Shown in pieces: positions 476-60,484 of a stretch of 60,484 nt of DNA. The notes under the pieces were generated by a model. It did not search any database and was not told where the DNA came from. It worked only from the letters and a program-made list of their open reading frames with translations. The stretch's first letter is position 1. Every line of letters starts with the position of its first letter. Made by a program: the position numbers and the translations under genes. The DNA is from a virus (taxonomy: Duplodnaviria > Caudoviricetes): positions 1 to 60,484 of IMG/VR virus record IMGVR_UViG_3300032213_001151, one strand, 5' to 3'.

Positions 476-502
476 AGTGGTAGTGTTGGTTTAGTATGGG
501 TA

Positions 503-518: not shown

Positions 519-536
519 TACCCGTGTTGTTGTTGG

Positions 537-13122: not shown

Positions 13123-13384
13123 GAAGATTATTGCTGCGGGATACGTGGCTGTTGAGCAACTGATAAAGGTTGCAAAGGAAGACATCATTAAAGGCGACTT
13201 AGATGAAGATATAGCTGCAGACAGATTGAAGAATGCTGCTGCAACAAAAAGGTTAGCTATCTTTGATGCTTTCGAGATTCTTACACGAATAGAAAACGAG
13301 AAGAATATTTTAGAAGGGAATGACGATGGAGATGGAAAGCCTCAACCAAAACAAGGGTTTGCAGAACGAAGGTCAAGAAAATAG
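13100..13384 (+). CDS. Terminase small subunit candidate
   Basis: Helical 94-aa protein directly upstream of the large subunit. Confidence 0.55.
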   Translation: MDPKELREKIIAAGYVAVEQLIKVAKEDIIKGDLDEDIAADRLKNAAATKRLAIFDAFEILTRIENEKNILEGNDDGDGKPQPKQGFAERRSRK

Positions 13385-19205: not shown

Positions 19206-20654
19206 ATGGCAGTTCTATCAACTCCCGGATTTCAGTTGCAGCCCTCAGCAGAGCAGGTTGCCTTGTCCACCAACTACATTACCAACTTCAACTTCTTGAA
19301 TCAGTATCTTCCTGATACCTATGAGAAAGAATTTGAACGCTATGGTAACCGCACCGTAGCATCCTTCCTTCGTATGGTAGGTGCTGAAATGCCTTCTAAC
19401 TCTGACCAAATCAAATGGGCAGAACAAGGTCGTCTTCACACCAAGTACGTGGATGTTACCACTACTGTTTTGACCAACGCAGACAGTGCCACTTTCACAG
19501 TCAATGACTTGAACGTATCAGGCATCGCAATTCGTCCCGGTCAGACCGTTATGATTACCCCTAACGTAGCAGGTCCTACTCAAAACAAAGGTATCGTTAC
19601 CGCAGTTAACACTACGGCTGATACTTTTGATGTAGCCTTCTACGAAGCAAGTGGTATCACCAACGCTTCAGCAGCAAACAAATTCACCGTATTCGTTTAC
19701 GGTTCTGAATTCAAAAAAGGTACTTCAGGAATGGTTGGCTCTTTGGAAGCAGAAGATGAAATCTTCAGCAACTCTCCAATCATCATCAAAGACAAGTATG
19801 CCGTATCAGGTTCTGACATGGCTCAGATTGGATGGGTTGAAGTAACCACCGAGAATGGTGCTACAGGTTACTTGTGGTACTTGAAGTCAGAGCACGAGAC
19901 TCGTCTTCGTTTCGAAGATTACCTTGAGACCGCTATGTTGGAAGCTGTTCCTGCAGAAACAGGTTCAGGTGTTGCTAACGCATCACTCAACCCAACCTAT
20001 GGTAACAAAGGTTCTGAGGGCGTATTCTACGTGGTTAACTCACGTGGTAACGTGTGGGGTGCAGGTAACCCAACTACCTTGGCTGACTTTGATACTATCG
20101 TTACTCGTCTTGACAAGCAGGGTGCTATCGAAGAGAATGTTCTTTTCGTTAACCGTGACTTCTCTTTCGACATTGACGATATGTTGGCTACCTTGAACGG
20201 CTTCAGCTCTTCAGGTTCTGCAAACGCAGCGTCATTCGGTTTGTTCGACAACGATACTGACATGGCTTTGAATCTTGGCTTCAGCGGATTCCGCAGAGGT
20301 TATGACTTCTACAAGTCTGATTGGAAGTATTTGAACGACCCAACTTTGCGTGGTGGTTTGACCCTGTCTACTTCAGGTGCTACTACCGCAAACGTAATTA
20401 CCGGTATGCTTGTTCCTGCAGGTTCAACTACTGTGTATGACCAAATCCTTGGTAAAAATGCGAAGCGTCCTTTCCTTCACGTGCGTTACCGTGCGTCTGA
20501 AACTGAGGACCGCAGATACAAAACTTGGATTACAGGTTCTGCAGGTGGTGCTCAGACAAGCGACCTTGATGCAATGGAAGTTCACTTCCTCTCTGAACGT
20601 GCCGTGTGCACATTGGGAGCTAACAACTTCTTCTTGTTCCGCTACGGAGCATAA
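19206..20654 (+). CDS. Major capsid protein
   Basis: 482 aa; gene position, codon bias typical of high expression, downstream terminator. Confidence 0.85.
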   Translation: MAVLSTPGFQLQPSAEQVALSTNYITNFNFLNQYLPDTYEKEFERYGNRTVASFLRMVGAEMPSNSDQIKWAEQGRLHTKYVDVTTTVLTNADSATFTVNDLNVSGIAIRPGQTVMITPNVAGPTQNKGIVTAVNTTADTFDVAFYEASGITNASAANKFTVFVYGSEFKKGTSGMVGSLEAEDEIFSNSPIIIKDKYAVSGSDMAQIGWVEVTTENGATGYLWYLKSEHETRLRFEDYLETAMLEAVPAETGSGVANASLNPTYGNKGSEGVFYVVNSRGNVWGAGNPTTLADFDTIVTRLDKQGAIEENVLFVNRDFSFDIDDMLATLNGFSSSGSANAASFGLFDNDTDMALNLGFSGFRRGYDFYKSDWKYLNDPTLRGGLTLSTSGATTANVITGMLVPAGSTTVYDQILGKNAKRPFLHVRYRASETEDRRYKTWITGSAGGAQTSDLDAMEVHFLSERAVCTLGANNFFLFRYGA

Positions 20655-20671: not shown

Positions 20672-20703
20672 GGGGAGTGTCTTCAAAGACACTCCCCTAT
20701 TTT
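20672..20703 (+). terminator. Terminator hairpin built on palindrome site 5 (20677-20692)
   Basis: GGGGA-GTGTCTTCAAAGACAC-TCCCC then TATTTT. Confidence 0.85.
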
Positions 20704-39800: not shown

Positions 39801-42800
39801 TTCTGAATTAGGTAATTCTTTTGGTGCAATAGGAGAAGAGAATGCTTGGAATGTACACGCACGTATGTATAGCCCATTGGCACGACAAGCAATGACTACT
39901 GAGACACGTGGTCAAAACTCATATGTTAACTTCTCAGGAGTCAATGAGAGAGTTGATGCTATGCGTCAAGAAGCTGCTGTGTTGAGAGACCAAGGTAAAA
40001 TAAAAGAAGCAGAGGCTATTGTCAATAAGATATATGAAGAAATATCTTTTGCAGAGCAGAAGCAAGGTATTCTTCCAAAAGAATTTTCTGATGTTGACCT
40101 TAATGATACAGGAGACAAAGAGTTTCAACCTGCATCTGTTGAGTCAATACTAACAAAAGCTGTTGGTGTTCAGAATGGATTAACACAAGGCGAGTTCATT
40201 GCTGCTGTAGCTGAGGGAGATATATCAAATGCAACAAAACTTGCAAACTTCCTGAGCCTTTCATTCCCAAGTGTAACTGTTTCTACAGATAAGGTTTCGT
40301 TTAACAATGTGATGTCTCAGGTTGGAACTGAGGCGTATATGGTTGGGGACCAAATCATCTATGGTGTAACTGTTGATGGTGACATATACATCAATCCTGA
40401 TGTGCACAATACAGAGTCATCACTATTCAATACCACTATCCATGAGTTTGGACACGTATGGACTGATTATCTTCAGACATCAAAGAAGGGTAAGCAGTTG
40501 TATGAACGTGGCGTACAGTTGGTTGAGGAAGGAATAGCAAATGATGCCAAGGTAAAAGAGATATTCGATGCTCAGATGAAGAAGTATCCGGGAGACCGGG
40601 CACGAGCTATCAATGAGACGATGGCTATTCTTATTGGCAACAAAGGTGAGGTGATTACCAATGCAGCAATCAAATCAAAGTTCAAGGAATGGTTGCTTGG
40701 AATGTGGAGATATGTTAAGGAAACATTCAAGATGTCAAAAGACTTGTCTGTTGAAGAGATTCAGAATCTTACCCTTGACCAATTCATAGGAACAGCATTG
40801 GCTGATATATTCAGTGGAGAGGAAATAAAACTTTCTGAAGCTCAGCAAAAGCAACTGAAGAATCCTGATGCCATGTTCAGTAGCACACAGTCTATGCAGT
40901 CGATTATCCAACAGGCGAGAGCTAATGGATTCTCTGATGCTGCCATCAAGCAAGTGTTGTTGAATCGTGGATTTAAAGCATCTGATATAAACAATGCTCT
41001 TGTTATTCCCATAGATGTAGATACAAATCTTCCAAGAGAGTTTGCAGATATTGACGGTGGTGTACAGAAAGGGCTTCAGCTATTCAATGATGTGCGCATT
41101 GAATTGCAGAGGTTTGCTCATATGGGACCTCGTGGTGGTATTCGTAAAGAGGTAACAAAAACAATGGCTCAGATTCGTGAGAAGGCTATAGAGCTATTGA
41201 AATCTCATCCGATATATCAAGCACAGTCTGATACCGTTCAGATGGAATTGATAAGCGCATTTGACAGAACCCTTGGAACTGCAGCAAATGCTAATGTTAC
41301 CCGTCAGATAACAGCAATAAGAAACAACTTGCGTCAGCGCAAGATTGGAGCAAGAGAATTACAGCAGGCTAAGATTGCGGTAAAGAACATGATACGTTCT
41401 GTTCTTCCTAAGTCTGATACATATTCTCAGGCTCAGATAAATAGGCTTATCTCTATCATCGCTAATTCTACAGAGGATACCATCCTTGCTGATACTGACA
41501 AGGTGATGAAGATAGTTGAGCAGCAGAGGGCAAAGATGAAGACATCCGTTCTTAAACAGATGTTGGAGTTAGTTAATAAAAAAGCCAAGGCTGCTATGAC
41601 TACCACCGGTAAGCGTAGAAGCAAAGGTCTCGACCCTGAAGGTCAGGCATTCTTTGCTCAAGTGAAACCAATCCTAAGAGCAGTCATCAATAATGACATT
41701 GAGTTCATGATTAAGTTGGCTGATGAATTGGCAAAGGCTGATGCTGATGGTTCAATCAATGATGCTCTTATAAAGCAGAATCGTGGAGAACAGTTGACTG
41801 TTCAAGAACAAGCATTGCTAAATAAGGCATATGCGTTTGATACGTTTGGTGACTTGATGAGCATGGAATTAGAGGATGTACAGCAATTGCTTGACGAACT
41901 CGTAGATGCTCGTGCAGAATCAATCAAGAGACTGAATACACGTAGAGAAGTACGTGCATTAAAGTATGCAGCATTGAATGCAGAGGCTTCTGCTCAGGTA
42001 TCTGAGTTGAACCCTGAGTTATTTGTCGAAGAGATTGATGCAAACGGAAACGTAACTGTTAGACCAAAGACCCGTAATGAACTTGTACAAGACCGTGCTG
42101 CTATCCGAAAAGCTTTTCAAGGCGGTAAGATATGGTCAGGGTTTAAACAGTTGGTAGCTCGTTGGGACTATACTACTATCACAGGCATAAAAGACTTCAT
42201 GCGTAAGCGCATCCTTCACTTGGGTTCATTGATGAATCTATTTGATAACGATGCAAAAGGCATGGCATTTTTTAGGGACAATATCTATAGACCTCTTAAT
42301 AGAATGGATGAGAAGTCTAAGCTTGGGTATTTCCTTGAGATGCAGAACTTAGACTCTATTGCTAACAGTATCCCCGGAATAACAAAAGGGTACAAGCAAA
42401 TCCGTAATATGCTTCAGACGGGTATCCATGAGTTCACTATCAATGGCAAGACTGATATATATAATGCAGACAAACTGCTAAGAATATATGCATTGTCTCT
42501 CAACGATGTTCAGCGTGAGAAGCTCAGAAAGATGGGTTGGGATGATGCTCAGATACAGAAGATTAAAGACATCGTTGGTCCTGAGCCGATAGCTTTTGCT
42601 GAGAAGTTGGTTGACTATTTTAGCAATGATTACTATGAATCAGTAAACAATGTATACTCAAATGTAAATGATGTAAACCTTGGGTATGTACCTAACTACT
42701 TCCCAACTATTACTCAGGCTCAGAAAGTAGGCTCAAAGCTTTTAGAAGATGGAGACTTTAATGGAATCTTCAATGCTGAGACAGCTCCTGCACTGAAAGA

Positions 42801-44430
42801 ACGTACTGATGTATTGGGTGAAATTGAATTGAACTATGATTTCTCAGATGTAGTCGAGAGTCATTTCGTTACAATGGAGAAGTACAAAGCATATGCAGCA
42901 GGTGTTAAAGAGCTTAATGCTATATTCCAAAATCCTGCATTCAATGTTCTTCTTGAAGAGTCAGGGCTGAAGTCAGTTGTAAAGCGTTCAGTAAACTTTG
43001 CGATTACGCCAAATGCAGGACAGCAAGAAGAGCAAACCGCACTTGGTAAACTGATGACTAAGTTCACAGGGTTTGCCCTTGCGTTTAAAGCCATTCAGAT
43101 TGTAAAGCAAGCAACTTCTTTCATCAACGCATATGAGGATTACAGCTACTTCCCTGCTGACTCTAAGCTACCGGGGATTGTAAAGGGACCTGTTGACTTA
43201 ATGATGTTCATGGTTGATAGCGCAAAAGTTATTGCCACTCTTCCAAAGCAAATTCGCAAAGCATATGGTATGTCTGCTAACGTAAGAGACCGTATGCTAA
43301 AAGGTATTGAGGGGGATGTATATGGTCTTGAGTCAGGCTCAAGCGTATTCTCTTCTATAGATAAGCGAACAGATATATGGGCACGTGCAGTACGTGCGTT
43401 TAAGACGGGAGCTGCGGGACCAACTGTGCTTGGTGACATACTCGGTGTTATGGGATACATGGTTAACTATAACCGTAACATTGCAAATGGCATGAGTCCT
43501 GATGCTGCATTAGAAGCGTTCAACAACTACAACGCAACAGCACAAAGCCGAAGGGGTACAGAGAAGTCATCCATTCAGCAGAACAGTTCTGAGTTGGCAC
43601 GTGCATTCACAATGTTCGGAAGCACAACATTCCTACAGATAAATAAAGTTCTCGAAGCACAGACAAATATATTCCGTGCATTGAAGGAAGGCAAGATGCC
43701 AAATGCAAAAGACATTCGTGCTTTCGCTATTAACCTTGGTCTCACCAACGCATTGTTCGTTGGCACTGCAAACATTGCTAAGTTCATTAAGGGTGATGAT
43801 GATGACCGTGAAGAAGCATTGAGACAAATGAAGAGGGCGTTGGTTGGTCTTAACCTAATTGAGTCTATACCTTTAGTTGGAGCAGCAGTTGAGACAGCTC
43901 TTGCTCACATTGAAGGAGAGAAGAAGAGAGGTGGAGATGCTGTTGTAAATCCATATATGCAGGTATACAATAAGATTCGCAAAGCATCAGAGGATGGTAT
44001 TGGATTCAAATCATTACAGCCAATAGCTGAGATAGTTATAGGTGCTCAGCTTGACCCATTCATAGGTTTGTATAATGGTGTTGCAGATGGGTTTGATGAA
44101 GAGGCAGTATATGACCTTCTCGGTATCAGCAAATCATATCGTCCAACAGAGGAGAAAGACACCAAGTCAAGTGCTCCAAAGGATATGACCAAGGAAGATA
44201 TGAAGCGATACTTCCCTGAGATGTACGAGCAAATGTATGGTCCCGGCTCTCCACTATATGATTATGAGCAGGAGATGAGAGACATGGAGAAGATGGAAAG
44301 AGAGCAGCTACAGCAGGAGAAAGACTTGATATATGGCTACGATGAAGATGCATCCAAATCAGATGGCACTGTATGGAGCAAGAAGAAGTCAACCAATAAG
44401 AAAGAATCAGGTACAGTTTGGGGTAAATAA
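33868..44430 (+). CDS. Giant multidomain (polyvalent-type) virion protein with GNAT and zincin-like motifs
   Basis: 3520 aa; EGKGIGSKLL GNAT motif A, FRAVHDFFGH, IHEFGH; TAACTTTG at 33856-33863. Confidence 0.8.
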   Translation: MDELKKLYDGLVEDGSYTKTFEEFQKQFQDASYRDRLYNGLVTDGLYTKSKDEFLRKYAVGPSKSIIEPVKKKETPAPISGSEFLSGIGSSESSDTEAYKFNPAAKPAAKPPVTPAEDFISSRAPKPTKDYVYTPTITLPEGYVPAPETPEVVARDNTRIVATDFGAPQALEKHEAFIAETNKLKEQAKKIERAKAQEEEQLIKSRNAAANQDAQFQEYLQGIDANLIDKVEEDVVPELNKKFNPYGFHFEEAVAGGDAMYVRTADGKHELLIPLDPFTTSQEVATSKQLRDFLTQYAQGREEVKSEDYINKALRAQNMRDVGMRNDDGTYSTVKFTSFEENGKYFVVPTLFPKDPNATYTTNKSDWIELPFEQAVAEARKRGEIFQFDSDQEAKGFAQGDWKGINAFDVEGQAFYKEKGLDYYAEKKKYENYTKLQDELDFLDNILGGGITPQQDKIDNPEYFAPDGRGLYTKEELEQKRAEVLKKKDSLLEQVYDIEVMGVGDGPVQKTREDFDVVLNKRQNEIAGEAIKMNAAATDEYKALDETSMALYNVPIEKIGTIIPKTAKDAENIKNLTAQLVKVNAAKKDAALRFETAKTYYDAKWNKAASSEYEENWAGFTTSVADAWNNGQAAEQIMLLTLGVKNAEDIKDRQEAARIIAENLLDVSGKQSRALTRLNLARDGEWSKTLLADPFEATATFVASSLTQMLPYASYIVPSATAAGAATGAVAGLMGGPFAEVTVPGGAIAGATQGLRLGMTAVSFGTEYTNSILDVMREKGYDLLDPKQVEAALSDESVWAEGSQLGISRGIPIAVVDYLSSGLAGRVFKTSKLASMPVKLGAMAAERAVFDPAAEALGEYAAQTVAGQDINFKEIAYEALGGLGNNTSHMAVNLYREARNNSNADLAYELTDINTVANERVSDEKISSWANNMHKLGKIDADVNQRIQENVGLRREARDLTSVGTTSRLIGDGKKVEARVMQLLSARNELSSTQNRKEINGDKIRAINKEIATISETKKLLPDNKDVAGDGVTTAVNLDAIIGTERQGVSLYKIGGKTFTREQFLSELDKMKNRRLLRARVDIKNDEEAIKIYNNKLNNAIQKQSPSAISIQSETGVSKTVEEGKPQTELEVTTEETQVTVPKEEVAKAEEDLVSSKTRLDELADAIPQRIDYTEDDLTNFDALEQQKADGVITALAEKVAEGTKLSTTEKQVYNANKEKVDGVSQLVAEKTSIEEEVADLEAMLKPRAEFRAEERVVPAKIENAITEDGEVDFEAEDQVRKIANERNIGITRDREIAYVARDEQGNVVGGAFTSYDNQTGKYTFDVVVTKEAEGKGIGSKLLDAVQNIPSDIAEMNPDATVEVDVVNPQMQRMLSKRGFEVSEKIGEERVLMVPGKKSKTEFRAEETTAEAPIDEVEAITDAINQIVSGNVSTELAPESTEGTVDVTDLSKRTGQAVPTVSFKIVEGVPVIFTISDQLTTGEIVNPQTGRAIGNLMGGIGFNFMNQNAAWAYTTEKKASESLKKAKKVYKENKQTIEEFWKNNPEYNGLVPMMVVKMGEGSILSNEATARVLSDNIQEFPEANRKRALAVLQKELTNEIKSLTKRADAAKSVLTKRNYQKEASGYQNILDLIAKNNIQTIEQLLAPEVFTQIENLNARKDIVNMIGYGKPNLPREKKAMSKPTKNSLVARAIIGIPANQEVKDINPNKRYELLNLGEVTNTITESTIADISNRSIVSIVGVDVLNPRILNTENGDFNHPNYQYGLAGKSIGILQEPISIVKAYPEAYNLALKGLIKEESKFVKPIKDGKKIVKPGNRLFNQSIPEASEIADRYYERTYGRKRPRYYGSRSIDKARAKRIADSFAKMADNPTAPDVKKAYEAMARETLEQYKYMLDAGYVVEINNNEPYGNSREMVDDLRNNKRMKIFSTESGFGDEKITPEQREKNVLLRESGFYDINGETLLVNDVFRAVHDFFGHSELGNSFGAIGEENAWNVHARMYSPLARQAMTTETRGQNSYVNFSGVNERVDAMRQEAAVLRDQGKIKEAEAIVNKIYEEISFAEQKQGILPKEFSDVDLNDTGDKEFQPASVESILTKAVGVQNGLTQGEFIAAVAEGDISNATKLANFLSLSFPSVTVSTDKVSFNNVMSQVGTEAYMVGDQIIYGVTVDGDIYINPDVHNTESSLFNTTIHEFGHVWTDYLQTSKKGKQLYERGVQLVEEGIANDAKVKEIFDAQMKKYPGDRARAINETMAILIGNKGEVITNAAIKSKFKEWLLGMWRYVKETFKMSKDLSVEEIQNLTLDQFIGTALADIFSGEEIKLSEAQQKQLKNPDAMFSSTQSMQSIIQQARANGFSDAAIKQVLLNRGFKASDINNALVIPIDVDTNLPREFADIDGGVQKGLQLFNDVRIELQRFAHMGPRGGIRKEVTKTMAQIREKAIELLKSHPIYQAQSDTVQMELISAFDRTLGTAANANVTRQITAIRNNLRQRKIGARELQQAKIAVKNMIRSVLPKSDTYSQAQINRLISIIANSTEDTILADTDKVMKIVEQQRAKMKTSVLKQMLELVNKKAKAAMTTTGKRRSKGLDPEGQAFFAQVKPILRAVINNDIEFMIKLADELAKADADGSINDALIKQNRGEQLTVQEQALLNKAYAFDTFGDLMSMELEDVQQLLDELVDARAESIKRLNTRREVRALKYAALNAEASAQVSELNPELFVEEIDANGNVTVRPKTRNELVQDRAAIRKAFQGGKIWSGFKQLVARWDYTTITGIKDFMRKRILHLGSLMNLFDNDAKGMAFFRDNIYRPLNRMDEKSKLGYFLEMQNLDSIANSIPGITKGYKQIRNMLQTGIHEFTINGKTDIYNADKLLRIYALSLNDVQREKLRKMGWDDAQIQKIKDIVGPEPIAFAEKLVDYFSNDYYESVNNVYSNVNDVNLGYVPNYFPTITQAQKVGSKLLEDGDFNGIFNAETAPALKERTDVLGEIELNYDFSDVVESHFVTMEKYKAYAAGVKELNAIFQNPAFNVLLEESGLKSVVKRSVNFAITPNAGQQEEQTALGKLMTKFTGFALAFKAIQIVKQATSFINAYEDYSYFPADSKLPGIVKGPVDLMMFMVDSAKVIATLPKQIRKAYGMSANVRDRMLKGIEGDVYGLESGSSVFSSIDKRTDIWARAVRAFKTGAAGPTVLGDILGVMGYMVNYNRNIANGMSPDAALEAFNNYNATAQSRRGTEKSSIQQNSSELARAFTMFGSTTFLQINKVLEAQTNIFRALKEGKMPNAKDIRAFAINLGLTNALFVGTANIAKFIKGDDDDREEALRQMKRALVGLNLIESIPLVGAAVETALAHIEGEKKRGGDAVVNPYMQVYNKIRKASEDGIGFKSLQPIAEIVIGAQLDPFIGLYNGVADGFDEEAVYDLLGISKSYRPTEEKDTKSSAPKDMTKEDMKRYFPEMYEQMYGPGSPLYDYEQEMRDMEKMEREQLQQEKDLIYGYDEDASKSDGTVWSKKKSTNKKESGTVWGK
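37163..37306 (+). CDS. Nested +1-frame small basic protein (47 aa)
   Basis: MPFKSKAQVRFLFSQKPELAKRWRKENPKQNLKSLPKKLKSQSQKKK with an A-rich initiation region. Confidence 0.6.
   Translation: MPFKSKAQVRFLFSQKPELAKRWRKENPKQNLKSLPKKLKSQSQKKK
37327..37342. repeat. 16-bp palindrome site 7 (GTGTCTTCAAAGACAC)
   Basis: Inside the giant gene, read as VSSKT. Confidence 0.95.
37613..38087 (+). repeat. 19-bp direct repeat CAGAGTTCCGTGCTGAAGA (37613-37631; 38069-38087)
   Basis: Exact copies 456 nt apart flanking the GNAT domain. Confidence 0.85.
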
Positions 44431-44433
44431 AAA

Positions 44434-44457
44434 GTGAGTGTCTTTGAGGACACTCAC
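44434..44457. terminator. Hairpin at the convergence of both transcription units, built on palindrome site 8 (44438-44453)
   Basis: GTGA-GTGTCTTTGAGGACAC-TCAC; T-run follows on the - strand. Confidence 0.75.
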
Positions 44458-53605: not shown

Positions 53606-53992
53606 TTATTTGATTAATTTTTGAACGTAGTTGCTCCAAATTTTTTCCTCTATCTCTTTCACATCTTTGGATATGTACTTGGTGCTCACCTCGTCTGACT
53701 CATGCGCATCGTTGGTGTCGAACATCCAATCACCTGATGGTAGAACCTGAATGCAGTACCCACCTGCGTAACGCATCACGTCCTTCACATCATGCATGAA
53801 GTAGTTGTGGTTTACGAACTCTTTCAGGTAGTACTCTTTGCTCATGAATCTGCCGGTGTTGACGAACTCTTCCTTGGTCATGTGCTCTTTGTCCATTAGC
53901 ATTTGTATGGACTGAATGAAGTGCTTGTCAGGGTTGGGACGCATCTTCTGAATTAGGATTTCTGTTGATAGGAAATTTGATAGTTTAGTCAT
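53606..53992 (-). CDS. Hypothetical protein (start may be downstream)
   Basis: ORF in dense operon. Confidence 0.65.
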   Translation of the reverse strand: MTKLSNFLSTEILIQKMRPNPDKHFIQSIQMLMDKEHMTKEEFVNTGRFMSKEYYLKEFVNHNYFMHDVKDVMRYAGGYCIQVLPSGDWMFDTNDAHESDEVSTKYISKDVKEIEEKIWSNYVQKLIK

Positions 53993-55043: not shown

Positions 55044-55592
55044 TTATCCGTAAACTAATTCTCCTAAAGCAAGATATTGGAACACTGTGTCGCTTGTTGC
55101 TGCGTCACCATTCTCATCCAACTCCTTCAGCAAACTGTCTGAGGATTCACTCATGCACTTGTTAATCCTATATTGGAATGTCTTAATGCTAAGTTCTCCG
55201 ATAGGCTCATCGTCCTCGTTCTCTACATCATAGATTGGAACCACTACTCCCTTGTCATACACCGCCTCGAACACTCTCTCTGAGAATGCTTTGTCACCGT
55301 TTCTTGGGACAGCTTTATCTATGATGTCTATAGACTTTGCATTCATGTAGTACCAATAATTGCTACCTCCCTCAAGTGCAGTGATGAATATATTCTCCAA
55401 CACCTCTCTTGATACATCTAAACTTACTGTGATTTTCATTTTGTCTGTGTTAATTAGTTTGATTAATTGTTGTGCCCACTCTTCTGTTGAGAATCTACCT
55501 ACGACCTCACCGTTCAGGTAAACCCTCCACTCTTTTATGCCTGACACGGTGGCTTGCGTCAGATTTATTATATGCCCTTTCATTTGCTGCAT
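55044..55592 (-). CDS. Hypothetical protein (TALEGGSNYW...GELVYG)
   Basis: 182-aa ORF. Confidence 0.7.
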   Translation of the reverse strand: MQQMKGHIINLTQATVSGIKEWRVYLNGEVVGRFSTEEWAQQLIKLINTDKMKITVSLDVSREVLENIFITALEGGSNYWYYMNAKSIDIIDKAVPRNGDKAFSERVFEAVYDKGVVVPIYDVENEDDEPIGELSIKTFQYRINKCMSESSDSLLKELDENGDAATSDTVFQYLALGELVYG

Positions 55593-56092: not shown

Positions 56093-56136
56093 TGGCAGGC
56101 GTGGGAGGAATCGAACCCCCCAATAACCATTCGCCT
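56093..56136 (-). ncRNA. tRNA-like minihelix (44 nt) ending GCCA
   Basis: AGGCG-AATGGTTAT-TGGGGGG-TTCGATT-CCTCCCA-CGCCT-G-CCA. Confidence 0.65.
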
Positions 56137-56137
56137 T

Positions 56138-56153
56138 GTGTCTTTGAAGACAC
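56138..56153. repeat. 16-bp palindrome site 12 (GTGTCTTTGAAGACAC)
   Basis: Between the GATase-GGCT stop and the minihelix. Confidence 0.95.
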
Positions 56154-56155
56154 TG

Positions 56156-57250
56156 TTACAGTAGGTTGTCTACATCATTCTGAGTATACCACTCGTTGCA
56201 TCCAACACAGCAGTAGTTCCCGAACCCGTCATGCTCAAGGTCTCTGTAGCATGAAGTGCAGTATGGTGTGTCAACTATCTCCTCGTCACACTCTTCCTCT
56301 ATGTCAGCAGGATAGTTGTCAAACTTGTCGAATGAACTGAAGTCAAGTTGCTTGTATGTGCTTGACGCAGTTGGCTCGAATGGGTGTGGGCGATATGGCT
56401 TCTGCTCGAAAGACTCATGCAGCGTATCAAAACTACTCACTCGCTTGGTTGGGTTGAAGTATATCCAAGCATTGACTACGTTGCCCCTTGCTGTCACGAT
56501 TGGAATCTTCTTACGGCAATACCAATTGGGGTGTCCCTCAAGTTGGTCTAACTTGGCAAGCACTGTGTCACTCACCTTGAACAAGTCAACCTTGACATTG
56601 TGCCCCACTCCCTTCTGTTCTATCATGTATGGTATGCCTTCAACGAGCATGGGATACTTGTCTTCTGTTTTGCCTGAGCCAATGTATCTTGAGTCGGTAA
56701 GGTATCTGTAGTAGTTGTTGTTGCCCTTCTTCAGTGTGCCATACACAGCGACAAGATTGTTCTGCAACACGTTGTCCTTTGAGTACCACACACCATCCTT
56801 GAAAGTCCAAAGGTCACGGTTGTATAGTTGGAATGTGCGGGTGCGCACGTTGATAGTGATGAACCTTACAAGTCTGTTCTTCTCCAAGGTATCCTTCCAC
56901 TTGTGCCTTGGCACTGAGTCCAATGACTCAGCTAATACCTTTGAGTCGCACGTGTTGTTGTCACCAAGCCCATGAATAGTACCGTTCATCATCAGGTACT
57001 CGTGACTGTTTGCACCACACCTGAATGGGTGTGTGTTTGACTTACCGACCTTGCCTACTGTGGCGTATCGGAAGTGTGCAATGAAAGGACGGTCAGTGTC
57101 GAGCACCTTCCACTGCTTTGATGTGTGATAGCTCACCTCAAATGTGTCGAGCCAAACTACACCTAACCCGTGTGGGTTGATGCGTGATGAGTTCTTGAGA
57201 ACCTCTTTAGGAATCTCAATGTTGCGTTGCTTTACGATTATGATACACAT
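56156..57250 (-). CDS. Class II glutamine amidotransferase fused to gamma-glutamylcyclotransferase and a Zn ribbon
   Basis: Cys2, NPHGLG, AHFRYAT, NTHPF, NG; VAVYGTLKKG...LDQLEG; CTSC/CVGC. Confidence 0.85.
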   Translation of the reverse strand: MCIIIVKQRNIEIPKEVLKNSSRINPHGLGVVWLDTFEVSYHTSKQWKVLDTDRPFIAHFRYATVGKVGKSNTHPFRCGANSHEYLMMNGTIHGLGDNNTCDSKVLAESLDSVPRHKWKDTLEKNRLVRFITINVRTRTFQLYNRDLWTFKDGVWYSKDNVLQNNLVAVYGTLKKGNNNYYRYLTDSRYIGSGKTEDKYPMLVEGIPYMIEQKGVGHNVKVDLFKVSDTVLAKLDQLEGHPNWYCRKKIPIVTARGNVVNAWIYFNPTKRVSSFDTLHESFEQKPYRPHPFEPTASSTYKQLDFSSFDKFDNYPADIEEECDEEIVDTPYCTSCYRDLEHDGFGNYCCVGCNEWYTQNDVDNLL

Positions 57251-57272
57251 ATATTTGATTTGATTTTGGGCA

Positions 57273-57288
57273 GTGTCTTTGAAGACAC
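57273..57288. repeat. 16-bp palindrome site 13 (GTGTCTTTGAAGACAC)
   Basis: Between the tRNA-like CCA end and the GATase start. Confidence 0.95.
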
Positions 57289-57298
57289 AGAACCCGAT

Positions 57299-57372
57299 TG
57301 GCAGTCAGGGCAGGATTCGAACCTACACAATAGGGCATCGCCCATAGCGTTTACCAATTTCGCCACCTGACT
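57299..57372 (-). tRNA. Atypical tRNA-like RNA (74 nt), isotype undetermined
   Basis: AGTCAGG/CCTGACT acceptor, GCGAAATTGGTAAACGC D arm, GTAGG-TTCGAAT-CCTGC T arm, G-CCA; short aberrant anticodon region. Confidence 0.7.
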
Positions 57373-57403
57373 ATTTGTATTACTATTGTGTACTGAACTG
57401 CTA

Positions 57404-57435
57404 CAAAGGTAATACATATTGTGAACATCACCAAA
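57404..57435 (-). promoter_or_regulatory. Promoter TTTG-N20-TACCTTTG
   Basis: Full -33/-7 consensus upstream of the tRNA-like RNA. Confidence 0.8.
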
Positions 57436-57583
57436 CTTTTTTTGCAATTAATTTTGCTCTGTCATGCTGCCAATTAGTTTGGTGCATGGCTCTCTCAATT
57501 GCCTCCCACTTTGTGCCTGCTGACACCCTCGCTACCACCATGCCCTTGTGATATACGTTCCACAGATAGTTGCTCTCCATCAT
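57428..57583 (-). CDS. Hypothetical protein (51 aa), not in ORF track
   Basis: MMESNYLWNVYHKG...KKVW. Confidence 0.6.
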   Translation of the reverse strand: MMESNYLWNVYHKGMVVARVSAGTKWEAIERAMHQTNWQHDRAKLIAKKVW

Positions 57584-57597
57584 GTTACTTGTTATTT

Positions 57598-58233
57598 TCA
57601 GGTGTAAAGTAGGTTTGTTTGTACTGTCTCAACGTGTGAACTCACAATGTCTCTTGCCTTCTGAATATCTTTCGGACGCACGATAAGGTAATGATGCACA
57701 CAGAACACATTGCTTGACTCGCAGGTCATAAGCTTGGTCTGTATCTTTGCCTTGCTTAGTGCCTTCTTGACTGCTGTCAATTCAGCCTCAGCTATGTCGG
57801 ACCTGCATGGTGAATCGTCCCACATACCCGTGTCATTGGCTCCGCACACTGCATATGCAGGCTGCTCATATCCTCGCATCCCGTCAGTGCTTACCCATGA
57901 CTTGCTCATGTTCCATATATTGCCTGCTGCTTCCTCGTCCACAGTAGGTGGTGTTGATGTGTTTACTTTGGTCCATGTCCCATCCCACTCGTTGCCATTG
58001 AGGAACCATTTCCCCTTGCTTACTCTTATGTCAACTCCACGCAGTCCATTTAGCCTGTCTTTTGTGGTCTTGCTGAACCACCCTGCGTTGGTGATATACA
58101 GCCCTTCTGCACGGTGCTCTGCTATCAGGTTGTCGAAAAGATACAGTGCCTTACCATCAGTAAAACTGTTGGATTTACGTAGTGGTGTGCCACTCTGAAA
58201 TGCCTCAATGATTTCGCTTGTTATCTGTCTCAT
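57598..58233 (-). CDS. Hypothetical protein
   Basis: 211 aa; AGWFSKTTKDRLN. Confidence 0.75.
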   Translation of the reverse strand: MRQITSEIIEAFQSGTPLRKSNSFTDGKALYLFDNLIAEHRAEGLYITNAGWFSKTTKDRLNGLRGVDIRVSKGKWFLNGNEWDGTWTKVNTSTPPTVDEEAAGNIWNMSKSWVSTDGMRGYEQPAYAVCGANDTGMWDDSPCRSDIAEAELTAVKKALSKAKIQTKLMTCESSNVFCVHHYLIVRPKDIQKARDIVSSHVETVQTNLLYT

Positions 58234-58234
58234 G

Positions 58235-58513
58235 TTACTTGTAATTAAAGTACCTCTTTAGCTCGGTGATTTGGTCTTGCAGTTCACCGTTCTCTGCATC
58301 GTAGTAGAAGGTCTCTTCTACCCATCTGAAGAAGGCAGCCATCTGCCCTTGCATCCCCTCGGACAGCACATTGAACAGCTCCCTTGCCTGCGTGTGCTGC
58401 CCGTTGGCTCTGCTCTCCATGATGTACATGAAGAACTCCTCAACACTGTTGAATTCCAATTCAACGATTTTGTTTCTCAACTCTAAGTCCTTGTGCTCTG
58501 TTATTTGTATCAT
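58235..58513 (-). CDS. Hypothetical protein
   Basis: Start set at MIQIT, downstream of the promoter. Confidence 0.7.
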   Translation of the reverse strand: MIQITEHKDLELRNKIVELEFNSVEEFFMYIMESRANGQHTQARELFNVLSEGMQGQMAAFFRWVEETFYYDAENGELQDQITELKRYFNYK

Positions 58514-58541
58514 ATTGTTTGTTGTTTGTTTGTTTCGGGTA

Positions 58542-58573
58542 CAAAGGTAGTACATAGTTTGTATATATGCAAA
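58542..58573 (-). promoter_or_regulatory. Promoter TTTG-N20-TACCTTTG
   Basis: Full -33/-7 consensus. Confidence 0.8.
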
Positions 58574-58783
58574 TTATTTTTCAACTTTTTTTTCATCGCT
58601 GTGAATCCTTACTGCGAGGACGGTTACGTTCTTTGCTGACACCTGACCCCACCCCGCTGAACCTTTGCGTATGTAGAACAGTCTGCCATCATGGCTAAGG
58701 CTTGCCCACTGCTCATATAGATGCAGTGGGAGCCTTGCTATTGGCTTGTCTATCCTTATCAGGTACACGTTTGTCTTTATCAT
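58574..58783 (-). CDS. Hypothetical protein
   Basis: 69 aa, coupled to the upstream gene. Confidence 0.6.
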   Translation of the reverse strand: MIKTNVYLIRIDKPIARLPLHLYEQWASLSHDGRLFYIRKGSAGWGQVSAKNVTVLAVRIHSDEKKVEK

Positions 58784-59061
58784 CTGCCACCCCCCTGCAA
58801 TAAGGTCTTGAACCCATTGTACACGTTGCGTTTGTACGCCTGACTTTGGTAGTCAAATTTGTTCGACATCAGTATGCTCGTGATGCTGCAAAATCTTATC
58901 TCAATTTGATGCAGCACCTCTTCGAAGGTCTTGCCGTCCATGAGATTCTTAATCACCTCATCACGTGTGCTCACGATAGGGTTGTCGAATGTGCCGTTGG
59001 CTTTTGCGTTGATGTGCGCATCAGCAATGGCTTTTACTTGTTTTGAAATGCGTGTTGTCAT
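58780..59061 (-). CDS. Hypothetical protein
   Basis: 93 aa, directly after hammerhead A. Confidence 0.7.
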   Translation of the reverse strand: MTTRISKQVKAIADAHINAKANGTFDNPIVSTRDEVIKNLMDGKTFEEVLHQIEIRFCSITSILMSNKFDYQSQAYKRNVYNGFKTLLQGGGR

Positions 59062-59086
59062 ATCTGTTTTTTGTTATTGGTTGTTT

Positions 59087-59135
59087 GTGTTTCGTCCTTT
59101 CGGACTCATCAGCCTGAGCACTCACTCAGGGACAC
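59087..59135 (-). ncRNA. Type III hammerhead ribozyme A
   Basis: GUGUC^CCUGAG-UGAGUG-CUCAGG-CUGAUGA-GUCC-GAAA-GGAC-GAA-ACAC. Confidence 0.95.
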
Positions 59136-59141
59136 GGGGCA

Positions 59142-59157
59142 GTGTCTTTGAAGACAC
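59142..59157. repeat. 16-bp palindrome site 14 (GTGTCTTTGAAGACAC)
   Basis: Apex of a GGGGUG...UGCCCC hairpin abutting hammerhead A. Confidence 0.95.
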
Positions 59158-59183
59158 CACCCCTACTCACTACCACATGAGTA

Positions 59184-59501
59184 TTATCTTTCAGGGAACA
59201 CGTGTGCCCATATTGAGTTGTCACTTACCCACTCATCAGCAGGAACGCGTGGTGCAAGCCAATTCAGTGCGTCAATTATCACCTGACTTGTTGTCGGGTC
59301 ACCCTCCCAATCGTTCATGTAGGTCTTGTCCTCAGACAGTTCGTCCCATATGTAGTTGTTCAGGTCGCAGTCATTGAGATTGCGTTGGTAGTACGTGGTG
59401 ATGTAGTGTTCACCGTTGTGGTGTAGGCTCGCTACTCCACCGTCTTCGGTAATGATGTCCAATGACTCATCAACTTGGCTTTGGATTACTCTGTATTTCA
59501 T
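59184..59501 (-). CDS. Acidic hypothetical protein
   Basis: 105 aa between the hammerheads. Confidence 0.7.
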   Translation of the reverse strand: MKYRVIQSQVDESLDIITEDGGVASLHHNGEHYITTYYQRNLNDCDLNNYIWDELSEDKTYMNDWEGDPTTSQVIIDALNWLAPRVPADEWVSDNSIWAHVFPER

Positions 59502-59701
59502 GCTGTTAGGTATGGTGTTGGGTTAATGTTGTAGGTCTTGCATAGGTTAACGATAACAGATGCTTGTTGTGTGTAGATGACAGCGTCAAACCTTTCGGCA
59601 GCCACTTCTATCCATTTTTGTGCGGTCTCATAGGTGTTGAACATCTTGATGTGAATCGTGTCCTCGTCTTGGTCAACGCAGGCGGTCCAATGTGTTGTCA
59701 T
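59498..59701 (-). CDS. Hypothetical protein
   Basis: 67 aa between the hammerheads. Confidence 0.7.
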   Translation of the reverse strand: MTTHWTACVDQDEDTIHIKMFNTYETAQKWIEVAAERFDAVIYTQQASVIVNLCKTYNINPTPYLTA

Positions 59702-59732
59702 ATTTGTGTGTTGTTTGTTGGTTTAGTCGGTT

Positions 59733-59783
59733 GCTGTTTCGTCCTTTTGGACTCGTCAGGGACAGTGCTCACTGTCCGACAGC
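59733..59783 (-). ncRNA. Type III hammerhead ribozyme B
   Basis: GCUGUC^GGACAG-UGAGCA-CUGUCC-CUGACGA-GUCC-AAAA-GGAC-GAA-ACAGC. Confidence 0.95.
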
Positions 59784-59791
59784 GGGGGGAA

Positions 59792-59807
59792 GTGTCCTTG
59801 AAGACAC
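59792..59807. repeat. 16-bp palindrome site 15 (GTGTCCTTGAAGACAC)
   Basis: Apex of a G/C-rich hairpin abutting hammerhead B. Confidence 0.95.
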
Positions 59808-59822
59808 CCCCACCCCCTTGGT

Positions 59823-60484
59823 TTAAAATGGTGTTTCTCTGTCGTGGTTGTAGTGCCCCACCACTCGACCCCCCGTTACCTGCACTGTGTGCATCTCAGG
59901 GTGTCTGAAGTTCGGGTCAAGGAAGTGCGCCACCTCTTCGTCAATTTTCCCGTCCATTATGAACTTGCGATAGTGGCGTGCCTTCTGTAGCTTCTCTTCA
60001 GTCTTGGCTACATCACCCCCGTACATCGATAGAACTATAGGTCTGATGTGGGCAAGGAACTTCTCGTGTGTTACACCTGACACGTTGAATGCGAAGTCAA
60101 GCATGGCATAGAATAGCTCGTATCTGCGCATGGTTTGCTTCACTGACTCAAACTTGCTTGGGATACGGAACTCAACCACATACTCATTGTAGCCCACCTG
60201 CTTTAGAAGTGCCATTTTGTACCTGCTGCCACCTCTGTTGTTCGGTCCGTCAAAGTGGCTTCTCTCGGTCTCAGGCTGCATACGCAAGTTCCCGTTGCAG
60301 TACCCGTTTGAGATGCGACTCTCGTACAGGGCAAGTAGAATCCCACTCAGCGGACGCAAAGCCTTGCGTATCTCGTCACTTGTCTTGCCCTTTACGCCTA
60401 CAGTCACGTGACCCCCACAGCGTCTGTCAGCAGGGCTGTAGCGTGAGTCAATTATCTTCTCAGCCTGCACGAACAAGTCATAGA
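59823..60484 (-). CDS. Putative amidoligase, 3' part (begins at 475)
   Basis: CGGHV, SRY and VVEFR motifs of the COOH-NH2 ligase fold. Confidence 0.75.
   Translation of the reverse strand, partial: YDLFVQAEKIIDSRYSPADRRCGGHVTVGVKGKTSDEIRKALRPLSGILLALYESRISNGYCNGNLRMQPETERSHFDGPNNRGGSRYKMALLKQVGYNEYVVEFRIPSKFESVKQTMRRYELFYAMLDFAFNVSGVTHEKFLAHIRPIVLSMYGGDVAKTEEKLQKARHYRKFIMDGKIDEEVAHFLDPNFRHPEMHTVQVTGGRVVGHYNHDRETPF
60362..60484. repeat. Terminal direct repeat, copy 2
   Basis: Identical to 1-123. Confidence 0.95.

Follow-up and report, generated by a model that had tools for sequence, protein, structure and literature searches.

The window analysed here, a complete circular genome of about 60.4 kb (60,484 nucleotides) from a freshwater Bacteroidota phage, shows one recurring architecture between genes: on the strand that is transcribed, an RNA module follows immediately 3' of a hairpin. 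The modules are of two kinds, hammerhead ribozymes and tRNA-like elements, and the same arrangement, which a sequence-only reading of this genome had proposed, is seen across relatives. We consider it probable that hairpin and interchangeable cutter together cut polycistronic RNA at gene boundaries and stabilise the upstream 3' ends. The argument draws on module structure, covariation and placement, and on the exchange of modules in evolution.

Palindromes and RNA elements in the window

The palindrome GTGTCTTYRAAGACAC occurs 15 times in the window, as compared with 0.09 copies expected from shuffles (up to two mismatches allowed). The copies at 56138–56153, 57273–57288 and 59142–59157 are exact, and that at 59792–59807 has one mismatch. 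These four intergenic copies had been placed beside RNA elements by the sequence-only reading, and all of them lie at those positions with modules 0–10 nt away, the motif-to-module gaps at the four window junctions being 6, 3, 10 and 0–1 nt. At E ≤ 1, an Rfam scan of the whole window gave three RNA matches and no more, namely a pair of type III hammerheads and a tRNA-like gene, and all three lie 3 to 10 nt from a palindrome copy. The minus-strand block of the window contains seven intergenic gaps of at least 45 nt, four with motif and module, one with the motif only and two with neither. Taken by itself, the window shows no significant tendency of motif and module to share these gaps (Fisher p = 0.14); the significance of the association is therefore drawn from relatives.

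Hammerhead ribozymes and their hairpins

Two of the four junctions hold a hammerhead:

59784–59816, minus strand: junction 1 hairpin (MFE fold), motif core 59792–59807 with G/C-rich flanks
59731–59785, minus strand: type III hammerhead 1 (Rfam RF00008, 41.6 bits, E 7.7e-7 in a regional scan)
59136–59163, minus strand: junction 2 hairpin, motif core 59142–59157, stem extended to about 13 bp
59084–59138, minus strand: type III hammerhead 2 (Rfam, 41.4 bits, E 8.9e-7 in a regional scan)

The junction 1 hairpin lies 10 nt past the stop of a 217-aa gene (59823–60476). Hammerhead 1 has an intact CUGACGA...GAAA core and a GUC cleavage triplet, and is predicted to cleave itself after GUC, between 59778 and 59777; on the 3' side of this site, an A/C-rich leader of about 28 nt is followed by the AUG at 59701. 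The junction 2 hairpin is placed 3' of a 105-aa gene (59184–59501), and hammerhead 2, with an intact CUGAUGA...GAAA core, a GUC triplet and a predicted cleavage between 59131 and 59130, is followed by the gene 58780–59061 and has orthologues in the related loci L001–L003. Both hammerheads score below the Rfam gathering score of 48.5, and their E-values are near 1e-6 when the region is scanned and near 1e-5 over the whole window; our own hammerhead model, R1, gives them 71.5 and 76.2 bits, respectively.

Covariation supports the reality of these structures, which the sequence-only reading had predicted. Pairing holds in 97.1% of cells across 15 hairpin-plus-hammerhead units, where 14 of 23 pairs show double changes; a set of 127 distinct hammerheads has 96.0% pairing and 551 cells with a double change. 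In each set, 0 of 500 shuffles reached these values. Extension of the motif stem by its flanks is typical of hammerhead-linked copies, and all 12 Rfam hammerheads in the window and L001–L009 begin 2–7 nt past a motif copy. Applied to 29 sources not chosen for hammerheads, R1 found 24 hammerheads, 19 behind the motif and five behind another GC hairpin; a different GC hairpin stands in front of five of the nine new hammerheads from sources not selected for hammerheads. Upstream of 126 distinct hammerheads, the adjoining 46 nt have a median folding energy of –17.0 kcal/mol (–6.35 in control windows), and a clear upstream hairpin is absent in four of the 126.

tRNA-like modules

The other two junctions hold tRNA-like elements:

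56138–56153, minus strand: junction 4 hairpin, the bare 16-nt motif, beginning 3 nt past the stop of the GGACT-like gene
56093–56136, minus strand: tRNA-like minihelix (acceptor/T-arm) ending in GCCA, recognised by folding and abutting the junction 4 motif
57299–57372, minus strand: tRNA-like gene (Rfam tRNA, 44.8 bits; ARAGORN 'tRNA-???')
57268–57295, minus strand: junction 3 hairpin, motif core 57273–57288
57404–57435, minus strand: promoter-like site of Bacteroidota type (TTTG-N-TAnnTTTG, pattern match)

The junction 4 minihelix consists of a 5-bp acceptor stem, a 9-nt linker with an invariant GG and a T arm of 7 bp whose loop reads UUCGAUU, and RNase P would cut it between 56137 and 56136. 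That such elements are real covarying structures is supported by the 24 of 25 distinct units that form 11–13 stacked pairs, and by acceptor stems that are unit-specific, reaching at least 5 bp in 24 of 25 units as compared with 12.6% of partner-swapped controls. The 3'-CCA is not conserved among the distinct minihelices compared. Minihelix-linked motif copies are typically bare, weak hairpins (median 0 extra bp, –8.7 kcal/mol), and several minihelices stand behind a non-motif GC hairpin.

At junction 3, the tRNA-like gene keeps its acceptor stem (AGUCAGG/CCUGACU), D arm, T arm and encoded GCCA intact; its anticodon arm is degenerate, and ARAGORN flags an aberrant anticodon loop. Its central part is swapped for 59 other letters in close strains, and elements sharing its acceptor stem occur in other contigs. 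The hairpin follows the tRNA-like gene at a distance of 10 nt, and from the hairpin another 22 nt lead to the AUG of the GGACT-like gene (56156–57250). In L002–L006 the hairpin stands at the same place without the tRNA-like gene. The promoter-like site just upstream of the tRNA-like gene is conserved in L001–L005 and L007. The order of this junction is thus reversed, since the tRNA-like gene lies upstream of the hairpin, behind the promoter-like site. This one of the four window modules fits poorly with the logic of a 3'-end cap.

Exchange of modules between relatives

Our comparison reveals that relatives swap ribozyme and tRNA-like element beside the hairpin, an exchange that the sequence-only reading had proposed to look for. 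At the junction after the GGACT-like gene, a minihelix is found in the window and L001–L003 and a hammerhead in L004, L005 and L007; at that after the 217-aa gene, a hammerhead is found in the window, L001–L003 and L006 and a minihelix in L004, L005, L007 and L008. Quick trees require at least two and at least six hammerhead/minihelix switches at these two orthologous junctions, where a module is present in 51 of 64 and 63 of 66 distinct variants, shares from such large counts being biased because most of the loci were retrieved by patterns requiring motif and module. At one further site, L005 has a true tRNA-Thr and L004 a minihelix-like remnant, with the same non-motif hairpin before both.

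This exchange bears on the idea that the tRNA-likes are functional small RNAs, acting for instance on tRNA-binding host factors or defences as decoys or hijackers, with the hammerheads as unrelated processing aids and the site shared only because both elements need intergenic space beside a generic hairpin. Such a role would suit the graded series from true tRNA-Thr through tRNA-likes with odd central domains and forms without an anticodon arm to minihelices, the hypervariable centre of the AGUCAGG-type element, which is replaced among close strains, the tandem motif–minihelix arrays without ORFs in L106, and the presence of tRNA-likes in genomes without the motif (MW202828.1 and L008). It is hard, however, to see why these elements and a 55-nt self-cleaving ribozyme should replace each other at two orthologous junctions unless the cut is the shared function, and the minihelices retain only those tRNA parts that RNase P recognises. 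We judge the small-RNA role improbable.

Some mobile elements target terminator stems, and the modules could likewise be selfish or neutral insertions that home to hairpins without benefit to the phage. Their precise placement relative to the hairpin, their patchy presence (missing from 13 of 64 variants at one junction and from 3 of 66 at the other) and the many switches on the trees agree with this. By comparison, module orientation always agrees with transcription, most genomes keep a module at the same two junctions, and stems that are strongly diverged retain their pairing, which indicates long purifying selection; neither flanking repeats nor ORFs inside the units were noticed in passing. 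The chance that the modules are mere insertions is very slight.

Other copies of the palindrome

Further copies lie outside the four junctions:

44434–44457, minus strand: terminator-like end of the minus-strand block, motif hairpin then TTTTTATTTA
20672–20697, plus strand: motif hairpin flanked by GGGGA/TCCCC, with T-rich tail (sequence context)
498–523, minus strand: hairpin-only junction without a module, GGGTA/TACCC flanks, AUG 27 nt downstream
13568–13583, unstranded: example of an ORF-internal motif, in the large terminase at aa 83

The hairpin at 44434–44457, listed first in the terminator scan and with the most G-C pairs (five), closes the block with its U-tract in the manner of a terminator, which fits a 3'-end hairpin role. 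The hairpin at 20672–20697 lies 3' of a capsid-like gene (19206–20654), and relative G001 has the motif in the same intergenic place. With further ORF-internal copies at 5452, 30735, 37327 and 45623, about a third of the window copies lie in ORFs; all five have identical codon positions in G001 and occupy three different reading frames. Because of these copies and the terminator copy, the motif appears to have a wider role, and its sequence distribution in ORFs and terminators points to a possible second, genome-wide function. The earlier notion of one motif as the anchor stands in part: 19 of the 24 R1 hammerheads lie behind it, but other GC hairpins substitute for it, junction 3 has the reverse order, and the motif also occurs in ORFs and a terminator. 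The 16-nt motif is the favoured hairpin, though not an obligatory one.

These copies also raise the reading that a dimeric phage regulator uses the palindrome as an operator in double-stranded DNA; the nearness of palindrome and RNA modules would then be incidental, as both crowd into the few intergenic gaps. Conservation of ORF-internal copies in three reading frames and near invariance of all 12 stem positions are consistent with an operator, as is G003 (the genome of L006), which has a genome-wide compensatory variant, GTCTCT..AGAGAC, and two half-changed copies that would be mispaired as RNA; the window-only gap test, with its non-significant outcome, agrees as well. Against it, the stem-extending flanks covary in intergenic copies, unrelated hairpins stand in for the motif before both module types, and hairpin and module keep a constant order and abutment. 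An operator with merely incidental RNA neighbours is a quite unlikely account, and a DNA role of the motif could coexist with its RNA role.

Proposed mechanism

From the observed structures and their placement we infer cleavage in vivo, a role for RNase P and a stabilising effect. A few Bacteroidota-type promoters would drive transcription of the minus-strand replication/recombination block as polycistronic RNA. Modules encoded in cis, each immediately 3' of a stable hairpin, would cut this RNA at defined boundaries between genes. A type III hammerhead would cut itself 5–7 nt past the hairpin base, whereas a miniature tRNA mimic (acceptor stem, T arm and D-loop remnant) would be cut by host RNase P at its 5' end, 1–6 nt past the hairpin. 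The upstream mRNA would be left with a 3' hairpin and a very short tail and may resist 3' exonucleases; the downstream mRNA would receive a structured 5' end, with a 5'-OH where a hammerhead had cut. Neighbouring cistrons could thereby have separate lifetimes without transcription termination.

The modules might instead mainly serve the downstream gene, by stripping upstream RNA or a 5'-triphosphate leader and leaving a structured 5'-OH or tRNA-capped end that insulates translation initiation and blocks 5'-end-dependent decay, with the hairpin as a folding insulator only. In the cultured relative elemoA_7-9A, a single hammerhead, with no upstream hairpin evident by eye, occupies the 5' UTR of the gene that opens that relative's own minus-strand gene block, a placement that favours a 5'-end role. 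Similarly, the window tRNA-like gene and a tRNA-like element of L007 stand right behind the conserved promoter-like site, before the GGACT-like gene, and every module is followed by a 20–35 nt A/C-rich leader and then AUG. Perreault et al. 2011 (PMC3088659) report that a mapped transcript 5' end of halovirus HF2 falls within 3 nt of a hammerhead site. By comparison, the hairpin lies nearly always on the 5' product side, adjoining the cut, and the motif hairpin also makes the terminator at 44434–44457; a mainly downstream function is unlikely, though it merits some weight. It is compatible with our preferred explanation, as one cut creates both ends.

Relation to known systems

In mitochondrial tRNA punctuation and MALAT1–mascRNA, mRNA ends are made by RNase P (and RNase Z), which a tRNA or tRNA-like structure draws to the longer transcript around it; MALAT1 also has a protective structure immediately upstream of its RNase P site. 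The polycistronic early mRNA of T7 is cut between genes by RNase III, leaving stabilising 3' hairpins; the T7 cutter is a host enzyme acting on long duplex hairpins, whereas here a ribozyme or, as we propose, RNase P would cut beside a short hairpin. Plant mitochondrial t-elements are tRNA-like structures in mRNA end formation, as outlined in PMC1920247. All these tRNA-based systems are organellar or nuclear rather than phage-borne, and none is known to alternate with a self-cleaving ribozyme, unlike the element here, a 44–50 nt minihelix without D or anticodon arm.

Clustered hammerheads flanking prophage genes were described by Perreault et al. 2011 (PMC3088659), who, in the sections concerned, proposed that they cut long phage transcripts into gene-length mRNAs and showed in vitro cleavage for three arrays; a passage of a later review (PMC6765202) still calls their function unproven. 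As here, a single phage transcription unit has more than one hammerhead in its intergenic positions. Hosts and phage lineage are different, and the passages compared show neither a conserved hairpin 5' of the ribozyme nor a tRNA-like alternative at the same junction. Kienbeck et al. 2024 (PMC10879173), in the portion relevant here, report theta (HDV-like) ribozymes by tRNA genes in Bacteroidota phages and propose that the ribozyme trims the tRNA's own 3' trailer. Both systems link a small self-cleaving ribozyme with tRNA elements in Bacteroidota phages. As compared with that account, the ribozyme here is a hammerhead that alternates with a tRNA-like element at mRNA junctions, and the tRNA-likes seem unfit for decoding.

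Our literature search found no paper on a design that joins a hairpin to an interchangeable ribozyme or tRNA-like module. Man-made separation of functional RNA units likewise places a ribozyme or tRNA between them, in RiboJ, an insulator made of a ribozyme and a hairpin, and in tRNA-spaced guide RNA arrays. If our reading is true, the phage would have a natural counterpart of these designs with both solutions used interchangeably, and module swapping at one boundary suggests a natural means of dividing long messages into protected pieces.

Hairpins and RNA modules in the minus-strand block

A permissive-threshold Rfam search of the whole genome returned three RNAs only, two type III hammerheads and one tRNA, and each lies 3–10 nt from one of four copies of a 16-nt palindromic motif, in agreement with the sequence-only reading. 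The four palindromes (56138, 57273, 59142 and 59792) are all present, and the motif occurs 15 times in the window as compared with 0.09 expected. The elements beside the hairpins, hereafter modules, are as follows:

59731–59785 (–), hammerhead
59084–59138 (–), hammerhead
57299–57372 (–), tRNA-like gene
56093–56136 (–), tRNA-like minihelix

On the transcribed strand, three of the junctions run from a stop codon through the hairpin and the module to an A/C-rich leader and an AUG, and the fourth runs from a promoter-like site through the tRNA-like gene and the hairpin to an AUG. A reading of the four hairpins as intrinsic terminators was rejected, as a terminator scan found no T run after any of them. 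A further motif copy at 44434–44457, forming a hairpin with a U tract, ends the whole block. Among the seven intergenic gaps of at least 45 nt in the block, motif and module occur together in four, the motif alone in one and neither in two, a co-occurrence that is not significant for the seven gaps of the window alone (Fisher P = 0.14). The proposed association beyond what scarce intergenic space would produce is thus not demonstrable from the window by itself, and chance is not dismissed at this level.

The window ends are identical over 123 bp (1–123 and 60362–60484), and since the genome is one contig, it is complete, either circularly permuted or terminally redundant, with a length of ~60.4 kb (~60,361 bp). 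The genes assigned by PHROGs include:

13320–15608 (+), large terminase
15605–18040 (+), portal
plus strand, capsid-like protein and GroEL
minus strand, helicase, primase-like protein, exonuclease and Sak-like annealing protein

The minus-strand block extends from ~1771 through the origin down to 44454; 'early' is a reasonable, putative label for it, and its minus strand carries three pattern matches to the Bacteroidota promoter consensus TTTG-N(17–21)-TAnnTTTG. In close strains, represented by DNA contigs of four runs on lake metagenomes, 400 or 122 letters are inserted at 58517–58526, just upstream of a promoter-like site (58542–58573). At the upstream end of the block (1290–1490), a motif copy lies beside a conserved TTAGCCC-containing stretch of ~100–200 nt without an ORF; such a stretch also follows or precedes a motif copy in four relatives (L002 815, L003 151, L004 2951 and L005 2052) and may be a control region.

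The datasets listed as containing this phage DNA are lake and freshwater metagenomes, and none of those listed is an RNA dataset. Among named records, the closest is that of an uncultured podovirus sampled in a Florida spring (MW202828.1; terminase identity 78%), and the cultured Flavobacterium 'elemo' phages and Cellulophaga phages come next (37–44%). Megablast found no close DNA relative among named phages, and blastn with one hairpin-plus-hammerhead unit gave just three weak partial matches.

Exchange of modules at orthologous junctions

Nine IMG/VR loci (L001–L009) were retrieved through the GGACT-like gene (56156–57250), and two junctions, one after this gene and the other after a 217-aa gene (59823–60476), were traced by homology of the flanking genes. 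Relatives indeed swap a hammerhead for a tRNA-like minihelix at the same junction, and do so at both; between the window and the pair L004/L005, the choice of module is reciprocal at the two junctions.

Modules at two orthologous junctions in the window and its relatives
After the GGACT-like gene, before an 89-aa gene. Hammerhead: L004, L005, L007. Minihelix: window, L001–L003. No module: L006 (hairpin only).
After the 217-aa gene. Hammerhead: window, L001–L003, L006. Minihelix: L004, L005, L007 (behind a non-motif hairpin), L008.

Distinct junction variants in all loci, with classes assigned by regular expressions rather than covariance models (after the GGACT-like gene, 64 variants; after the 217-aa gene, 66 variants)
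Motif and hammerhead: 43; 36
Other or no hairpin and hammerhead: 2; 18
Motif and minihelix: 4; 7
Other or no hairpin and minihelix: 2; 2
Motif only: 4; 1 (a weak minihelix by eye)
Neither motif nor module: 9; 2

Trees built from the flanking proteins require at least two switches between hammerhead and minihelix for the GGACT-like gene (50 rows) and at least six for the 217-aa gene (62 rows), counted in two states with module-less rows (13 and 3, respectively) omitted and identical proteins entered once. These numbers are rough because of phage mosaicism and error in the trees, which are FastTree trees without support values. At a third site, a genuine tRNA-Thr in L005 corresponds to an acceptor/T remnant only in L004, with the same non-motif hairpin before both, which suggests decay of a tRNA as one possible route to minihelices.

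Structure and covariation of the hammerheads

Both window hammerheads contain a complete CUGA(C/U)GA...GAAA core and a GUC cleavage triplet, and are predicted to cleave themselves. They score 41.6 and 41.4 bits (E ~1e-6 to 1e-5), under the gathering score of 48.5 for Rfam RF00008, and the hammerheads of relatives score 40.5–48.4 bits; the scores are lowered by a short stem III of 4–5 bp. In 15 hairpin-plus-hammerhead units, the catalytic core columns (C3 U4 G5 A6 N7 G8 A9 ... G12 A13 A14) are invariant in all 15, and covariation supports three helices around the core, with stem III open: 97.1% of cells are paired. Double changes occur in 14 of the 23 pairs, a value equalled by none of 500 shuffles, and slid controls are 34–48% paired. 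The larger set of 127 distinct hammerheads, aligned by fitting to R1, a hammerhead-only covariance model built here, gives 96.0% paired cells and 551 double-change cells (0/500 shuffles). R1 finds 160 hammerheads in the 77 loci retrieved by pattern.

Variants in which two U residues face each other at the first stem II pair (CUGAUGAUUCC...GGAUGAAAC) recur across distant genomes (L003 3312, L007 5298 and 7105, L096 5432); they are missed by Rfam at E < 0.05 and found by R1. Among cultured phages, vB_FspP_elemoA_7-9A carries one hammerhead (NC_055852.1 19080–19138, corresponding to L128 1501–1559, minus strand), which R1 scores at 40.7 bits. It lies in the 5' UTR of gp62, the gene with which a minus-strand gene block begins, and no motif was found within the 33 kb searched. 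R1 detected no hammerhead in Cellulophaga phages phi13:2 and phi38:1 or in Tenacibaculum phage Gundel_1.

A compact tRNA mimic

The window minihelix comprises an acceptor stem of 5 bp, a linker of 9 nt, a T arm of 7 bp with a UUCGAUU loop of tRNA type, and a terminal GCCA, and its stacked helix therefore measures 12 bp (7 + 5). About twelve stacked pairs are the length of the acceptor/T arm of tRNA. Of 25 distinct minihelices following the motif, 24 stack acceptor and T stems into 11–13 pairs (12 in 11 units) when counted outward from the T loop, a count fitted to the structure and guarded by a partner-swap control: the acceptor sequences are unit-specific yet pair over at least 5 bp in 24/25 units, compared with 12.6% when the 3' strands are swapped between units. 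Two MAFFT alignments (A2 and A3) were left out of these counts because their acceptor and T stems slip out of register. In 24/25 minihelices, the acceptor stem begins to pair 1–6 nt past the motif, and GG is present in the linker of every one, as in a D loop. Single-sequence folding z-scores are modest (–1.0 to –2.6), and the 3' ends read GCCA in the window and L003 and GCUA, CAAA, ACUA and similar elsewhere. These features define a compact class of tRNA mimic, 44–50 nt long in all, that consists of acceptor stem, T arm and a linker carrying GG.

T arms were also sought independently of the motif in the window and L001–L014, which gave 18 elements. Ten start directly after a motif copy, one (the window tRNA-like gene) lies just before a copy and three follow a different strong hairpin; the remaining four have no evident hairpin or belong to motif-less genomes. 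Two other identities for the minihelix were considered and rejected. A tmRNA is contradicted by the length of the element (<50 nt) and by ARAGORN, which calls none; the only match is a partial one to tRNA-like ends in L003, at 16.8 bits against a gathering score of 47. An attP core is disfavoured by the minihelix having its own covarying 5' acceptor strand, and by the search of the whole genome for PF00589, which gave no match while controls matched.

The tRNA-like gene at 57299–57372 scores 44.8 bits with Rfam RF00005 (threshold 29), and ARAGORN reports it as 'tRNA-???', with a two-letter anticodon that names none. Its anticodon arm folds into a 4-bp stem with a 3-nt loop, and Rfam aligns 4 nt instead of the expected 6; the standard 5-bp stem, 7-nt loop and readable anticodon are absent from this gene. 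In close strains, its centre (57323–57353) holds 59 other letters, and the acceptor, D and T parts are kept. A depth peak over 57210–57491 reflects many other contigs matching the tRNA-like region. Long tRNA-like elements, here directly after the motif, occur in seven other contigs (L018 10148, L027 6176, L055 6693, L056 7404, L061 7369, L080 6774 and L090 6082); the acceptor stem AGUCAGG/CCUGACU is common to the window and several of them, the others differ by about one base, and their central domains vary widely. In the motif-less MW202828.1 (523–697 of that locus), two odd tRNA-like genes are adjacent and followed by a classic terminator, one of 108 nt with a long central insert and the other of 61 nt without an anticodon arm; ARAGORN calls neither. 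In L106 (6898–7110), three motif copies alternate in tandem with two minihelices, with no ORF between the units.

A stable hairpin precedes most hammerheads

The motif is present in seven of the nine loci (L001–L007), in L006 in the compensatory form GTCTCT..AGAGAC, and is absent from L008, L009 and MW202828.1; complete relatives carry 7–15 copies, compared with none for a reversed control. All ten Rfam hammerheads in L001–L009 start 2–7 nt after a motif copy. Pattern scans of IMG/VR yielded 77 stretches with the motif and a hammerhead core and 20 with the motif and a T loop, mostly from contigs of 55–65 kb. The 98 loci contain 346 distinct motif sites, which were classed by regular expressions and whose shares are biased because the loci were picked by motif-plus-module pattern. 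A hammerhead comes next at 113 sites and a minihelix at 22; a further 89 consist of the hairpin alone, with an AUG no more than 45 nt away, 42 are ORF-internal and 80 fall into other arrangements, including long tRNA-like elements, variant hammerheads and tandem motif–minihelix arrays.

Applied to 29 sources that were selected without regard to hammerheads, R1 detects 24, namely 15 training units and nine new ones, of which four stand behind the motif and five behind a different GC-rich hairpin. The motif likewise precedes 107 of 126 distinct hammerheads in the pattern-picked loci, with another hairpin before 15 and no clear hairpin before four, and the 46 nt upstream of these hammerheads fold with a median of –17.0 kcal/mol, compared with –6.35 in control windows. 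What stays constant is thus a stable hairpin that ends immediately ahead of the predicted cut. The idea of a single motif as the anchor holds insofar as the motif is the commonest hairpin, and fails insofar as others are used too, as before five of the nine new hammerheads. Hairpins ahead of hammerheads are lengthened by a median of 4 extra pairs (–18.7 kcal/mol), and those ahead of minihelices are bare, with a median of 0 (–8.7 kcal/mol). After the 217-aa gene homologue of L032, L033, L045, L048 and L059, a shared element, CCTAAGCA(A)GAT...TAAAACTGCT, which is not a strong hairpin, precedes the hammerheads.

Motif copies inside ORFs

Five window copies (5452, 13568, 30735, 37327 and 45623) lie inside ORFs, namely at aa 83 of the terminase, at aa 400 of the helicase, in the 3520-aa ORF (33868–44430) and in ORFs of 136 aa and 115 aa. 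All five are kept at the same codon positions in the complete relative genome G001, in three different reading frames; thus, the nucleotide sequence itself is selected. Within the late region, neighbouring ORF-internal copies lie ~7–10 kb apart. The L006 genome, G003, has the symmetric change to GTCTCT..AGAGAC in six of eight copies and a half-change in the other two, a pattern consistent with a sequence-specific factor that recognises the motif, possibly as DNA.

Three genes are present in four motif-bearing complete genomes and not in two motif-less ones, of which only MW202828.1 really discriminates because G005 is very distant, and they are weak candidates for a motif-binding protein:

10770–11036, 88-aa gene
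53606–53992, no match in Pfam, PHROGs or the protein atlas
55044–55592, only phrog_2355 (unknown function) and a sub-threshold DUF6176 match in the same three resources

A reading of the motif as an N4-type promoter for a virion RNA polymerase was dropped for lack of support, rather than disproved: the palindromic motif varies in its loop and is also found inside ORFs, and the 3520-aa ORF gave, apart from an unknown PHROG, only a GNAT acetyltransferase domain (approximately aa 1286–1381), its sole recognisable part, with no PDB relative by sequence.

Discussion

A hammerhead does one thing, which is to cut its own strand, and an acceptor/T minihelix is the part of tRNA recognised by RNase P. 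Since the minihelix repeatedly replaces the hammerhead at the same junction, it most likely causes a cut too. From its shape and its interchange with a self-cleaving ribozyme, we infer that RNase P would cut at the 5' end of the acceptor stem. The exchange argues that the function selected at orthologous junctions would be cutting of the RNA at an exact place.

Each of the two predicted cuts is only a few nucleotides away from the 3' side of the hairpin, so the upstream RNA would terminate in a hairpin and carry hardly any single-stranded tail, and the downstream RNA would start with the folded module. A motif hairpin with a U tract stands at the end of the block, and another motif hairpin follows the capsid-like gene, which fits a role of the motif as a general 3'-terminal hairpin. 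We therefore favour intercistronic processing into hairpin-capped mRNA segments as the probable function. Two cases show that 5'-end formation is at least part of the story, namely the tRNA-like gene next to a promoter-like site in the window and the hammerhead in a 5' UTR of elemoA_7-9A.

Beyond intercistronic processing, we tentatively consider an RNA 'punctuation code', which is possible rather than probable. A sequence-specific hairpin might mark mRNA 3' ends, both terminators and processing sites, and be read by a putative factor that also reads the ORF copies, and interchangeable cis modules might do the cutting, with the hammerhead repeatedly exchanged for a minimal tRNA mimic that recruits RNase P. 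Cleavage by a protein, at the many junctions with a hairpin alone, would be a third mode compatible with this scheme.

Textbook analogues are tRNA punctuation, MALAT1–mascRNA and T7 RNase III processing. Thousands of hammerheads were found in 2011, and their role in bacteria and phages has been an open question ever since. A review still calls a role in mRNA processing unproven (PMC6765202). Clustered hammerheads in prophage operons, with the idea of phage transcript processing, were reported in 2011 (PMC3088659), and theta ribozymes beside phage tRNAs in 2024 (PMC10879173). The full-text literature searched, mostly outside subscription journals, contained no description of a hairpin-anchored junction with mutual replacement of hammerhead and minihelix. 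Synthetic designs that place ribozyme or tRNA spacers beside protective hairpins were invented independently by synthetic biologists, and the junctions described here would be a natural version of them.

The lineage is widespread in lake metagenomes, with hairpin-plus-hammerhead units in 77 IMG/VR stretches, and the cultured Flavobacterium phage vB_FspP_elemoA_7-9A is a possible experimental system. As orthologous junctions carry either a hammerhead or a minihelix, the question of the role of phage hammerheads becomes directly testable. If the punctuation code were true, the exchange of modules would amount to a natural complementation experiment on what bacterial and phage hammerheads are for.
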